This document shows, in pieces, positions 1,330-63,555 of a stretch of DNA of 64,000 nt. The DNA is from Octopus vulgaris (lineage: Eukaryota). Made by a program: the position numbers and the translations under genes. The DNA is taken from positions 186,558,001-186,622,000 of the forward strand of contig OX597815.1 in assembly GCA_951406725.2 (NCBI GenBank), in the 5' to 3' direction. Every line of letters starts with the position of its first letter. Position 1 is the stretch's first letter. Under the pieces are notes generated by a model. That model did no database searches. It saw only the letters and a list, made by a program, of their open reading frames with translations, and was not told the origin of the DNA.

Positions 1330-1379
1330 TATGGATATGAAGATGACTTAGGGAATATGAAACCGGTAAGTGATCCATA
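1330..1379 (+). ncRNA. Degenerate minimal hammerhead ribozyme motif
   Basis: tatggat..TGAAGA..GAAA-ccgg-TA..atccata: stem I arms pair, palindromic stem III, GUA site; C3 missing and stem II decayed. Confidence 0.4.
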
Positions 1380-1843
1380 CTACTGCGTCTTGGACTTAAT
1401 TAAAAAAGCTTCTATACCGAGTATTTCACACATTTCCAAGGCATTGCTATTCTTTACAATGTTATCACACTCTATCTTGCATTTTTATACGAGTGAAATA
1501 CACATGGGAAGTACTTTGTCCATCAACACGCAGAAGTTTCGCTGAAAGACCTTCACAAATGACTTTTTTTAAAAAATTGATCACACTCTCTATGAAATAG
1601 ATGTTGTCGAAACAGGGGCACTTTGTGCCATGAGTCAGTTGCCGACGTTATCATAGAGTAATGTGAGATGAAGTGCTTTGCGCAAAAACACAACGCACCA
1701 CGCGATCGTGAGTACAACACTCCGACCACTTTGCCTTGCGCCCTCACTATACATATGAATATATATATATATGTGACCGCGTGTGTACCGTTGGCGATTT
1801 TTTTTCCTCTGTCTTCCCTTCTCTGGATCTTTCCTTCTCCTAT

Positions 1844-1878
1844 GTTTCCGACGAAGAGCTCCGCTCGAAACGTTATAC
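1844..1878 (+). ncRNA. Minimal type I hammerhead motif (U4C core change)
   Basis: gttt-CCGACGA-a-gagc(tcc)gctc-GAAA-cg-TT-atac; perfect stem II, palindromic ACGU stem III, one stem I mismatch. Confidence 0.6.
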
Positions 1879-2029
1879 CCTCCTCTTTCCTTATTTCCTG
1901 AGCCTCCAATAATACTATATTTGTTCTACGTCCTCGCGTTTTGTATTTTGGGCTATCTTGTTTGGATGTGTGTACGTATGTATATATACTTGCATGTTTG
2001 CATGCATGCATGCATGCTATAATACATCT

Positions 2030-2640
2030 CTGCTTTCTTCCTTTTTATGTAAGCCTCTGCCTTGGTTATTGTGAGTGGGCAGATGCTGATAAAGTCTCTT
2101 AAATTTCTAATGCTGCACCCACTTATTTGTATTTTTGGGAGGGATTTCATATTTATTTGGTTGTTTTTTAACTTCCTTTATTAAAGCAGTTTGATGTTTG
2201 ATCTAGTTTCTTTTCTTGATTAAAAGGGATTCTCTTCCCAAATTTTGATGTCATGGTAGAATGTCTTTGCTGGCGTAAATTTAGTCTTACTCAAAGTTAA
2301 AAATCTCAAATATTTGTTTGTATGTATATCTTTTTCCCTGGTATTGCACTTGTTTCATTGTTTTATATATTCCTCTTGTTATTGGCTGTGATGTTTCCTT
2401 CTGATTTATCTGTCAAACAAATTAAAGTTTATGGAGGAAGTTAGGCGTGTGGCACATTGTAAATTGTGTTTTATGGTTGAGTGGCTCTTCCTAATCTGTT
2501 TTTAATTTTGGTTTTGCCAATAATGAAAGGATTAAAGGCTTCTTTATGGGGAGTGGAATTTCGTTCAGTTTATTAAATTTGTCTGTTAAACTAATTAAAG
2601 ATATTTGCTTGTTTATTTGTTTCGATAATCTATGTATTTT
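2030..2640 (-). mobile_element. Possible highly decayed Penelope-like (GIY-YIG) ORF remnant
   Basis: Minus-strand fragments such as SICPLTITKAEAYI loosely resemble the PLE endonuclease C-terminus; HHR-bearing repeats lie nearby; weak. Confidence 0.25.
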
Positions 2641-2995
2641 TTAATTAAAAATTTCATGTGTGCTTGCGTGTGTTATTGCGTGTTTCTGTAATTTGTTCGG
2701 GCCTTGCTTTGTTTTTATCTTGGGTATCAATGCATATCCTTCAGTATATTTGATAGTGTGTGTGTGTGTGTGTGTGTGTGTGTGTGCTTTATCATTCTGT
2801 ATGCATACTTCTACACACTGCCTGTCTAGTTTGTTAGGGCTGATTCATGCTCGAGTCTTGTGGGTGCGGCGAAAGAGACTTGACAGTGGTCTTTGGCTGT
2901 TTGAAATTCGATTCAGTTTTTTGAAGATAAACTTATTTTGTTGCCTGCAATGTGATATATTATCAGTTCCCAAGATGGTGAACTACGAGGATCCT

Positions 2996-59808: not shown

Positions 59809-60100
59809 GTCAGTGACAGTTTGTCGCTAGAAAAAGCATATAGTATTTTACGAATGGAATGTGTTTTCATCACCAGCTGGTGATTATCACACGTTGAAGA
59901 CGAGTAACCATTCAGAAACCCGGGTCTATGTGTATCACATAAGGCTAGAAATGGGAGCGATGACCTCCCCTTGCAAATTCTAATCGACCACAGACAGTGT
60001 GACGTTAGCCAGCTGGAGGAGATGTCTTCCTGGGGCTAAAAACAATAGTAACATCATCCTCTATGGGACCACCACATTTAGTTGGCAAATATATTGTACG
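59809..60100 (+). mobile_element. Partial monomer of the ~360-nt hammerhead repeat (retrozyme-like)
   Basis: Paralogous to 62980-63285; HHR at 59888-59932; ends in a TA-rich tract. Confidence 0.8.
59888..59932 (+). ncRNA. Minimal type I hammerhead motif (C3U)
   Basis: cacacg-TTGAAGA-cgagt(aacc)attca-GAAA-cccggg-TC-tatgtg; palindromic stem III, GUC site. Confidence 0.7.
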
Positions 60101-61490
60101 ATATATATATCTATATCTATATCTATATCTATCTATATATATATATATAGGGAGGGAGAGAGAGGGAGGTAGAGACAGACAGACAGAGATTGAGGCAGAC
60201 AGACAGGCAGATAGATAGGTAGTTTTCTTAAAGATTATTCATATAATTAATAAATTTTAATTTAAGAAAAGTTTTCTCCAAACATATCAATATGTGCGCG
60301 TGCGCGTGCCTCAGTGTGTGTGTGTGTGTGTGTGTGTGTGTGTGTGTGTGTGTGTGTGTGTGTGTGTGTGTGTGTGTGTGTGTGTGTGTACAGACCGTTA
60401 ATGTAATTAGATCTATTAAAGCACCACTAGACAAATTTCCCGCGCTGTAATGAACGACATATCAAGTGCAAACCAATTAATGTCCCGAGAATATTGCTGC
60501 CGACTCAATTACGTTAATGCATGTCTGTAAATACAGGTATGGTCATATAGGTATTAAATAAATATTTTCATTCATTTCTGCGCCGGTATTAATTCCTAAG
60601 CATAACAATCTTACTCATCCTTGATATCTCATTGAGAACACTCAATATTTGCCATCATCTTAAGAGAAATGCTTCTAGGCGGTGATTTCTATATTTGAGT
60701 TATGAGTCCAGTGTTCCACATTAGTTCGTTATCGTTCTTGAAGTCTAGAAACACAGAAATCACAAATATAATGGTGATTGACTTCTAAAATATAAATTCA
60801 GATTAGCTTTATGTACAACAGGTAATAAATATTCATTTGAAATCTGTTTGTTTGTTACATATCTTTATGGATCTAGTTACAGTTTCAAACAATAGATCAG
60901 ACCGGTATTTTGTTAACTGTGGAAAAAATATATTAAGAAAGTATGTTCCAATGTAATAGGTTCTTAGTTCTCGTATATTTTGAGATTGCATACAAGTCAG
61001 AGAAAAAAAGCAAAAAATTTGACAGTTGTACACACACATTCAAGTCAGAAAAATAGAAAATGTTTAGCTTTAGCTGTCCAATAAAAGACATACTAGAAAT
61101 GATAAAGAGGCAATAGAAATGTTGATCGCGCCAAACAAGACTTCATTTGAGCAGAAAGCACATAAATAAAATAAGTAAGTCATGCTTCACTCTCCAGCAG
61201 CTACGTATGACTTTATGTCATTTTTTTTGTTTTTATCCAGTTATCAAGTGAATTAGCATTTGCTCTAACCAAGATATATATATGAAGACCTTTTCTCCTC
61301 TGGTACTTTACGCTTAGTGAAGTAATACTTGCGCTTCAGTAGAAAGAGAAACTACGCGTTAATGCTACATGCGTTTAATAATCGCTGTTCCGTTTCTCAG
61401 TTCATGACAATATATATGTGTGTGTGTGTGTGTGTGTGTGTGTGTGTGTGTGTGTGTGTGTGTGTGCCTATATGTATGTTTATATGTATA

Positions 61491-61910
61491 GGCGTAGGAG
61501 TGGCTGTGTGGTAAGTAGCTTGATTACCAACCACATGGTTCTGGGTTCAGTCCCACTGCGTGGCACCTTGGGCAAGTGTCTTCTACTGTAGCCTCAGGCT
61601 GGCCAAAGCCTTGTGAGTGGATTTGGTAGACTGAAACTGAAAGAAGCCCGTTGTATATATGTATATATATATATATATATATATATGCATGTATGTATGT
61701 GTATATGTTTGTGTGTCTGTGTTTGTCCCCCAACATCGTTTGAGAGCCGATGCTGGCGTGTTTACGTCCCCGTAACTTAACGGTTCGGCAAAAGAGACCG
61801 GTAGAATAAGTACTAGGCTTTCAAAGAATAAGTCCTGGGGTTGATTTGCTCGACTAAAGGCGGTGCTACAGCATGGCCGCAGTCAAATGACTGAAACAAG
61901 TAAAAGAGTA
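61491..61910 (+). mobile_element. SINE family A, full length
   Basis: Matches the other A copies end to end. Confidence 0.93.
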
Positions 61911-62575
61911 TATGAATGTAAATATGTGTCTGTATGGGTGTGCTAGTCACAATTATTCTTTGGCTGACATAGCTTATGCTATCATACCACAAATATCTCA
62001 AATACTTAATGATACAGTAAAAATAAATGGTTTAAAATATAATTCAATGAAGTTATTCTTTTACAAAGAATGTCGTCGCAGTTCGCTAAACACTATGGCC
62101 TCTTTGCAAGACTAGAATATTTTTCAGTTGTTATGATTAGAACTTTTACTTTAGAAAATGTATTAGAAAATTTAATTACACAAAACAATGTAAAAAAAAA
62201 AACTGAAACCATATTGAATCGCCTCCGTATTTTGTACATAGCATCTTGATTAGAATCTTCGATGGAGACAGTACCTTATTGTATACAACGTGTGTATACA
62301 ATCTGAAGTGACTAGTCTCGTTAGTCTGTCCCTTGATCTGGTGTTTTCGTTTATATGTGTCTTATCCGCAGCCAAATTCTACACCAACAATGAAACATTT
62401 AATATCTTCAAAATTTTAGCAAATTCACTCGAAAATATGTCACAAGCAGATAACTTGTGCTTTTAATATATAAATCAATTGTAAATTATCTCTGGCTTCG
62501 GCATATCTCCTGATAATTCATTTTAGTAACTGTCTATATGTGGGATTCAATATCATAAATTGAAAAATAATAATG

Positions 62576-63555
62576 ATGGCTTGGCTGTGTGATGAGAAGC
62601 TTGCTTCCCAATCTCATGATTCCGTTTTCACTCCTTCTGCGTAGCACTTTGGACACGTATCTTCTGCTTATTGCCTCGGGCCGATCAAAGCCTTGTGAGA
62701 AGACTTGATAGACGGAAACCGAAAGAAGCCCGGGTCTGTGAGTATCATGTAAGACTAGAGATGGGAGCGATGACCTCCCTCGCATATACTAATCGGACAC
62801 TGACTGTGTGTCGTTGGCCAGCTGGAGGAGATGTCTTCCTGGGGATAAAAGCAACAGTAACACCGTCCTCTATAGGACCGCTACATTTAGTTGGCAAATA
62901 TATTTTACGATTCTGTACTGTTACTGTTTATCTCTCGCTCAGGGATTTAATACAACTTACTCCTCTCTTTACGAGATTAGCGTCAGTTTATCGCTAGAAA
63001 AAGCATATAGTATTTTGCGAGTAGAATGAGTTCTTCATCACTTGCTAGTGCGTGTTCATCACTTGCTAGTGATGAACACGCACTGGGAACGGGTAACCAC
63101 TCAGAAACCAAGGTCAGTGTGTATCATGTAAGGCTAGAGATTGGAGCGATGACCTCCCTCACAAATACTAATCGGACACAGTGTGTCGTTGGCCAGCTGG
63201 AGGAAATATCTTGCTAGATCTAAAAACAACAGTAACACCGTCCTCTATTGGACCGCCACATTTAGTTGGCAAATATATTTTATGTCTATATAGATATTTA
63301 TTTATGTATGTATAATGCATGTATGCGTGTCTGTGTGTCTGTGTTTGTCAACCTTAGCTGCTTGGTGACCGGCGTTGTTATATTTACGTTCCTGTAACTA
63401 CGTTTTTCGGCAAAAGAGACGAGTAGATTCAGTACCAGGCTTTAAAAATGTAAGTACTGGATTAAATTCCTTCGACTAAAAATTCTTCAAAGCGGCGCCC
63501 CAGCATGGCTGCATTCTAATGAATGAACACGGTAAATGGTAAAAGATAAAAGACA
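62576..63555 (+). mobile_element. Diverged SINE family A split by a retrozyme-like insertion
   Basis: 5' half 62576-62731 and 3' half ~63300-63555. Confidence 0.8.
62725..63285 (+). mobile_element. Tandem ~1.5-mer of a 379-nt hammerhead-delimited monomer
   Basis: GTC sites at 62734-62736 and 63113-63115, each followed by tatcatgtaag.ctagagat.ggagcgatgacctccctc..acatttagttggcaaatatatttta. Confidence 0.82.

Follow-up and report, generated by a model that had tools for sequence, protein, structure and literature searches.

Minimal type I hammerhead ribozymes (HHRs) occur in several classes of mobile element, which are compared here as far as the accessible parts of the cited sources describe them. 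Dispersed single minimal HHRs and opposite-strand pairs of them 100–700 bp apart have been reported (PMC4209133), retrozymes have been argued to be non-autonomous Penelope-like elements (PLEs; bioRxiv 10.64898/2026.07.22.740005), and the Hydra clade of coding PLEs includes an octopus family with an HHR (Hydra-1_Obim; PMC8557442 supplement). Here we consider a 64,000-nucleotide stretch of the Octopus vulgaris genome (contig OX597815.1, positions 186,558,001 to 186,622,000), which as a whole is called the window; it is a microsatellite-rich part of a 2.8-Gb genome with approximately 30 large contigs, and a first-pass annotation had reported HHR folds throughout it.

It is highly probable that the window holds approximately eleven HHR-bearing families, mostly as decayed insertions, all of them likely copied in by the reverse transcriptase (RT)-endonucleases of PLEs; two of the families are ends of coding elements, and at least five are non-coding and would accordingly be passengers of such enzymes. 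The dense HHR–PLE system is real and its class is known; what it adds is a family with a G3–C8 core, a tRNA-headed family, and retrozyme-sized units with PLE geometry. For the study of how PLEs produce tandem and inverted insertions and of what their hammerheads do, young, high-copy non-coding passengers of this kind supply thousands of natural insertion records and short, easily assayed RNAs.

The families, lettered A to K, resemble the dispersed minimal HHRs of PMC4209133 in the short stem I, the extra base after A9, the palindromic minimal stem III, the occurrence of single and opposite-strand motifs, the U3–A8 variant, and the presence of many unrelated families in one genome. They differ in family-wide G3–C8 and U4C cores and in the cephalopod host, none of which is mentioned in the accessible part of that article. 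With Hydra-clade PLEs (PMC8557442) the system shares a C-terminal GIY-YIG domain, DKT, a CxCX5C linker, the lack of CCHH, and CxxC and CxH motifs, as well as (TA)n targets, a 3′ HHR, an inverted 5′ copy, and a tail at one end, but tails here reach 60–104 nt as against 30–40 bp there. Six family-specific motifs (from C, E, F, H, I, and the family of an 806-aa frame described below) had no match in the accessible part of the PMC8557442 supplement. Like non-LTR retrozymes (PMC7229834; bioRxiv 10.64898/2026.07.22.740005), the short elements are non-coding, low-GC units of a few hundred nucleotides with one type I HHR each; unlike them, they form dispersed partial tandems of at most approximately 1.7 units with no long arrays (110 fetched loci), show the inversion and tail geometry of PLEs, and carry HHRs of the minimal PLE type, and the accessible part of the preprint names no cephalopod.

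Hammerhead anatomy and core variants

Ten families were searched for genome-wide, giving 143–2966 first-look candidates each (these are not copy numbers), and the best 20–30 matches per query were examined. Column counts over 19–55 copies gave a full core, stems I and II, GAAA, a palindromic stem III, and the NUH triplet in families A, B, C, D, E, F, G, H, and I, and the same anatomy was seen in 20 copies of family K, so that the core conservation expected of true families is found as a complete minimal type I HHR in nine families by column counts and likewise in K. The palindromes of stem III are imperfect in families A, G, and I; those listed in the first-pass annotation are real, namely ACGU (sites 47628 and 1844), ACCGGU (27173), ACCCGGGU (59888), AAUAUU (5034), and UGAUCA (27488). 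In a cross-family MAFFT comparison the families did not align outside the HHR core. The earlier view of about ten families with nothing shared beyond the core is thus upheld by alignment, and what it missed was the variation of the core pair. Most copies in the window are decayed family members.

The pair between core positions 3 and 8 is of the Watson–Crick type in all families: C–G in nine, U–A in J (both copies seen), and G–C in E. As a control, the flanks of the fetched loci gave 17 matches with Watson–Crick 3–8 pairs versus 2 with eight non-pairing cores. In family E, column counts over 55 copies showed G3 in 95% and C8 in 93%, and in a recount, 41 of the 51 copies from the search and 7 of the 11 from the flanks carried G3/C8, while 8 could not be parsed. 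A U4C core is present in 88% of the copies of family F and 98% of those of family G. As to precedents, U3–A8 cores occur in nature (PMC3088659; PMC4209133), the U4C core is known from a viroid (PMC3088659), and C3G/G8C is an engineered change with partial rescue (PMC11167929; PMC8495972). No natural G3–C8 hammerhead was found in the literature searched, the variants of Lunse et al. 2017 lying outside the comparison. Judged from the aligned copies, the G3–C8 swap of family E appears to be family-wide and looks new; such a core would supply the missing piece in the natural covariation of the 3–8 pair, and it shows a blind spot of standard descriptors.

Families D and C (39531–39582 and 59894–59930) lack the usual G10.1–C11.1 pair at the base of stem II and show a mismatch or an extra base instead, which apparently also holds for H and K.

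Insertion signature and short non-coding units

The short non-coding unit families are represented in the window as follows.

36083–36770, inverted pair: family A, non-coding unit of approximately 484 nt; the arm 36083–36348 is on the minus strand, tail-less, with core at 36284
36375–36770, plus strand: tailed arm of family A with an intact HHR core at 36508
59799–60102, plus strand: copy of family C (358-nt unit), core at 59894 with C3 mutated
62724–63284, plus strand: partial head-to-tail tandem of family C, decayed core at 63083
38976–39732, inverted: family D, young unit of 496–497 nt, HHR core at 39531, (TA)n at both outer ends
38976–39159, minus strand, and 39158–39732, plus strand: arms of family D, the first with a 104-nt tail, the second of 1.2 units
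27346–27679, inverted: family K, non-coding unit of approximately 490 nt; short arm 27346–27443 on the minus strand, 27454–27679 on the plus strand with core at 27494

All tested families have 5′ inversions and two alternative 3′ ends each; inversion points and 5′ ends vary among insertions, and the 3′ ends fall at two fixed sites. With same-locus duplicates removed, 60 inverted insertions were compared: 57 have the tail on exactly one arm (A 12/12, D 12/12, B 16/19, G 17/17), 3 on neither arm, and 0 on both arms. The queries for G and partly A are biased towards the tailed forward arm, and D and B alone give 28/31, again with no two-tailed insertion. We also compared the occurrence of (TA)4 near the 3′ end with that in a control zone: among 30 loci per family, the counts were 29 versus 9 for A, 21 versus 2 for C, 28 versus 10 for D, 26 versus 3 for F, and 29 versus 5 for G, and among 20 they were 18 versus 1 for I, 18 versus 1 for K, and 14 versus 3 for H.

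A tail at one end has been described qualitatively for PLEs (PMC8557442). In the anole PLE Poseidon PAc, as here, two internal RT start sites bracket the tail, the target is AT-rich, and both strands are cut and extended, with a dimer predicted for the enzyme (PMC11167929); unlike the present families, it is a coding element studied in vitro, and a split of the start sites between the inversion arms is not stated in the accessible part of that article. From the tail counts we infer that a dimeric enzyme would use one RNA start site per target strand, and the 57/60 rule yields a prediction that the PLE in vitro system can test.

The head-to-tail periods are 484 nt in A, 358 nt in C, 496–497 nt in D, and 488 nt in K, and two HHRs one unit apart were found at four independent loci of D and at one each of A, C, and K. 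With read-through of the RT beyond one unit in these four families, the template would be a circle or an uncut multimer. The copies of family D are 95–97% like the window query, the repeats inside a single insertion reach 99% similarity, and the tail is the opening 104 nt of the following unit. Among the 12 listed D matches longer than one unit, 4 cross the second cleavage site and 0 end there, and the template was accordingly uncut or religated. Folded as circles, D monomers reach −115 to −123 kcal/mol versus approximately −93 ± 6 kcal/mol for 30 two-base-block shuffles. When the D unit was compared with four sequencing runs, X1 gave one 526-nt contig holding the whole unit plus a 30-nt overlap (496+30), that is, a closed loop, which is not counted as evidence: the RNA status of the run is a guess, both X15 and tandems in the genome contain the same joint, and the break in the contig lies at the tail end, at which copies in the genome border on (AT)n. 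No pile-ups of starts or ends were listed, a feature that contigs do not reveal.

The two alternative 3′ ends of D (38976–39732) are each preceded by CCTCAAT and those of A (36083–36770) by CCTTATTT, a repetition that suggests duplicated signals for the RT start or for the nuclease.

Coding families, the tRNA-headed family, and families E, F, G, and J

The remaining families are placed in the window as listed below.

57032–57416, minus strand: family H, truncated 3′ end of a protein-coding PLE; core near 57124 damaged, GAAA deleted
3601–4057, plus strand: family I, 3′ end of a protein-coding Hydra-type PLE, truncated within stem I; core at 3602
47575–48055, inverted: family B, tRNA-like head at approximately 47790–47868 on the minus strand, (AAT)n, and HHR, joined at the 5′ end of the head
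47668, minus strand, and 47925, plus strand: cores of family B, the second with a damaged GAAA; tail of approximately 35 nt on the plus arm only
4172–5163, head-to-head HHR pair: family E, long form; G3–C8 cores at 5074 (minus strand) and 5117 (plus strand)
4172–4950: one arm of a larger repeat around the long form of family E
1767–1988, plus strand: family F, element of approximately 220 nt; U4C core at 1848 and a damaged stem I in the window copy
38770–38943, plus strand: family G, core at 38808 with U4C and with A9 mutated in the window copy; short 5′ inversion, 65-nt tail
27100–27300 (approximate), plus strand: family J, U3–A8 core at 27179, the same in one other copy

Upstream of family I lie frames with the cysteine linker and a GIY-YIG-like endonuclease; a 644-aa open frame ends approximately 500 nt before the HHR and resembles an 806-aa full frame. 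Upstream of family H only endonuclease fragments were found, approximately 1.4 kb from the HHR. These frames of RT/GIY-YIG type, together with the PLE insertion signature of the tested families, bear out the connection to Penelope made in the first-pass annotation. Its description of the elements as non-coding is correct for the families with short units, which are real, and fails for H and I, which are truncated ends of protein-coding PLEs.

The 806-aa frame (positions 1987–4404 of locus L283) is an open Hydra-type RT-endonuclease frame followed 447 nt downstream by an HHR of its own; it opens without a start codon, and several near-identical shorter copies are present at other loci. It carries DKT, the CxCX5C linker, and CxxC and CxH, and it lacks CCHH, in agreement with the accessible definition of the Hydra clade (PMC8557442). 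DKT was seen in this relative only, and the Hydra motifs around E and N were read from translations. The family is probably young, and this PLE is a candidate driver. Proteins in the coding loci resemble Hydra-1_Obim. A HMMER search returned 1146 unnamed matches at E ≤ 0.001, and a homologue search that compared the endonuclease of family I with longer proteins yielded 92 candidates, none of them significant. The window itself contains no PLE coding remnant. A Neptune-clade reading of the coding elements was dropped because the linker, DKT, and the missing CCHH point to Hydra.

Family B begins with a tRNA-like head that the earlier account had omitted. The head starts 7 nt before the A box (A box at base 8), as in a tRNA, with the B box 45 nt later, and the 5′ end is fixed at +1, the sequence upstream being unrelated or inverted in 30 head loci. 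Among the 48 copies that reach the 5′ start of the body, a trinucleotide array lies upstream in 38, the B-box region in 30, and the A box in 21; conversely, in the best 30 head loci the head leads to an HHR within 520 nt in 18, to the body start in 5, and to the array followed by other sequence in 7. The Rfam tRNA model scored 15.8 bits (cut-off 29) in one locus and had no match in another, and ARAGORN recognized 0 of 15 loci at default settings and 2 of 6 heads at a relaxed score. The head may resemble tRNA-Arg and the heads of the octopus short interspersed elements (SINEs) OR1 and OR2. The 3′ part of family B, with an HHR and a one-arm PLE-type tail, is apparently not derived from a long interspersed element (LINE). 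Family B shows no preference for (TA)n (3 versus 2 of 30 loci), and its partner may therefore belong to another PLE clade.

In having a pol III-type promoter followed by an HHR, family B is like the schistosome elements SMalpha and Sjalpha (PMC6765202, PMC8490949). SMalpha forms tandem repeats and its cleavage leaves the promoter at the 3′ end, whereas family B is a dispersed monomer with a tRNA +1 start, an internal (AAT)n, 5′ inversions, and a tail of PLE type. No report of a PLE-mobilized tRNA SINE was found in the literature searched, and from its sequence the tRNA-headed family looks new; if this holds, a tRNA-headed element with PLE ends would extend the partners of SINEs past LINEs.

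Family E occurs in two forms. In the short form, head-to-head pairs stand between (TA)n flanks; the 5′ end is approximately 20 nt above the HHR, the joins vary, and one arm carries a 60-nt tail. Copies of the long form share a fixed palindrome whose two arms differ and measure approximately 1.0 and 1.4 kb; the long form lies (4172–5163, L146) within a repeat of at least 2.3 kb with two partly related arms, and the right end may resemble Helitron-like non-autonomous ends. Family G reaches at least 580 nt further upstream in two copies, and no linked frame was found upstream in the two extended loci. Its HHR (38800–38850) has stem I, stem III, and the cleavage triplet in common with the HHR of the coral element Hydra-2_aMil (File S2, PMC8557442). 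At one locus (L207) three copies of the complete family G insertion, (TA)n flanks included, follow one another in tandem with a period of approximately 410 nt, which is a local duplication and not a tandem of units.

Proposed copying mechanism and its alternatives

According to the mechanism that we favor, a dimer of the PLE protein would nick both strands of a (TA)n target, the two strands would be primed at different internal start sites of the RNA, the inner site serving one strand and the outer site the other, and the two cDNAs would join near their truncation points, yielding an inverted insertion with the tail on one arm only. In A, C, D, and K, the RT would pass the HHR cleavage site and exceed one unit. 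As the template we lean towards a circular monomer, with only a slight preference: it would come from the two-HHR tandem loci by cleavage of HHR dimers paired through the palindromic stem III, followed by religation by a host ligase. The RNA of family B would be transcribed by pol III from the tRNA-like head and would borrow the same PLE machinery. For the families that target (TA)n, enzymes of the Hydra clade are the most likely source of this machinery, with no partner matched by sequence. Tentatively, one can go further and imagine in octopus genomes a recently active community of Penelope parasites, with circular-RNA retrozymes of 360–500 nt, a tRNA-promoter SINE that borrows PLEs, a functional G3–C8 HHR in one high-copy family, and a one-tail rule that reflects a dimeric RT starting on each target strand at a different RNA site; this fuller picture is possible rather than probable.

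Several points weigh against this reading. The loci examined are a non-random sample. In family C, the one family in which covariation was assessed, it did not exceed that of shuffles (89.7% of cells paired; 194 of 500 shuffles reach the score), and the test has low power since copies decay after insertion. The short families share no sequence with the coding PLEs (20 coding loci) beyond chance flank insertions. Families H and I are placed provisionally in the Hydra clade by their motifs: in Pfam the GIY-YIG domain remains below the cut-off (E 0.002 in L232), and the 806-aa and 644-aa frames have no match. Families F, G, and J may be either autonomous or passengers. Self-cleavage of the HHRs and circular RNA are predicted steps, and in other animals the HHR of the anole PLE is dispensable for insertion in vitro, with uncut RNA as the main template (PMC11167929), and 1 of 9 frog retrozyme dimers was cleaved (bioRxiv 10.64898/2026.07.22.740005).

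The strongest alternative has a considerable chance of being right, though less than an even one: that PLEs mobilized the families from linear, uncut read-through transcripts of partial tandems, that the HHR is a retained fold or a hitchhiker, and that there is no circular RNA. Anole HHR mutants insert normally in vitro and no reads end at the cleavage site (PMC11167929), the 5′ truncation points of family D are also off the cleavage site, U4C and G3–C8 cores are expected to be slow (PMC3088659; PMC8495972), and long tandem arrays are missing among the fetched loci. On the other hand, such a history does not sit well with unrelated families that keep intact cores and a compensatory 3–8 pair, nor with the strong structure of the unit-length monomers, and related retrozymes of mussel, coral, and axolotl accumulate as circles (PMC7229834).

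It is unlikely that every motif is merely the end of a 5′-truncated autonomous PLE, without independent non-coding elements. Dispersed minimal HHRs were taken as such ends in PMC4209133, and the explanation holds for H and I and is possible for F, G, and J, the HHR of G resembling those of coral and sea-cucumber Hydra PLEs (File S2, PMC8557442). It is already contradicted for A–D and K. Head-to-tail periods of 358–497 nt in A, C, D, and K, the fixed tRNA-like 5′ end of B, and the fixed 5′ end of short E copies all oppose it, and no PLE protein match was found in the cores of the loci of the short families A–E and K.

We give very little weight to the view that the families arose from a few ancestral PLE ends by amplification as DNA, in the manner of miniature inverted-repeat transposable elements, Helitrons, or satellites. 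The fixed palindrome of long-form E agrees with it, as does the local tandem amplification proposed in the accessible part of the retrozyme preprint (bioRxiv 10.64898/2026.07.22.740005). The variable inversion points and 5′ ends combined with two fixed 3′ sites, and the variable joins of the (TA)n-flanked short E copies, make it improbable for everything except long-form E.

The motifs were also examined in the window itself with three HHR descriptors, all of which gave more matches than the shuffle means, in line with the check proposed in the first-pass annotation. A strict descriptor had 1 match (36508, plus strand; shuffle mean 0.02–0.05, 60 shuffles), and a scored one had 2 (36508 plus and 47668 minus; mean 0.01 at a score of at least 22, 100 shuffles). 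A relaxed descriptor, which permits any Watson–Crick 3–8 pair and U4C and was devised once the variants were already known, had 4 (5074 minus, 27179 plus, 36508 plus, and 39531 plus; shuffle mean 0.22, maximum 3, 100 shuffles). Of more than a dozen type I folds claimed earlier, 14 of the 16 cited positions fall in the ten families found genome-wide, but only 5 of the 16 pass at least one descriptor in the window. Individual positions also required correction. The true place of the HHR cited at 57054 is near 57124 on the opposite (minus) strand, and the window copy of it is dead; that at 5034 is a real motif on the minus strand with its core at 5074; and that at 27173 has a relaxed match at 27179 with support limited to 2 copies.

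The possibility that the folds arose by chance in AT-rich, microsatellite-laden DNA is next to negligible and is refuted for every site but 1330, for although 11 of the 16 cited sites fail the descriptors and single motifs fold no better than shuffles (z −2.0 to +1.7), the family-level anatomy and the shuffle controls contradict it.

1330–1380, plus strand: putative HHR-like remnant with broken core and stem I; no second copy in the 1.07 Mb of fetched loci, to which the search for second copies of this site and of family J was confined

A comparison with Rfam brought no agreement: hammerhead families were absent among the best 150 of 159 matches in the window (E ≤ 10), and two loci of family B had no match to a hammerhead model. 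In the 341 kb of flanks of fetched loci, the 17 HHR matches belong to 13 classes of core and stem III, with 0–2 matches in each of 10 shuffles. This corresponds to approximately 50 per Mb, or on the order of 100,000 genome-wide only if the flanks are typical, which is not assured. The flanks contain at least eight extra HHR families, none of them present in the window, with further U3–A8 and U4C cores and in some cases long stem II inserts. In a recent repeat annotation of Octopus vulgaris (PMC13282606), 893 recently active families appear as "unclassified SINE" and the word ribozyme is absent, and the HHR families may thus be unclassified or misclassified there.

Among the other repeats of the window, an abundant SINE-like repeat of 183–184 nt occurs in tandem pairs at 33708–34073, 35207–35573, and 54998–55369, two of which form a large inverted arrangement around 33700–35570. 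A short interstitial telomere-like (CCCTAA)n array lies at 33223–33284. Further long inverted repeats are found at 10387–10672 and 23911–24094 and may be inverted insertions of PLE type without the HHR part.

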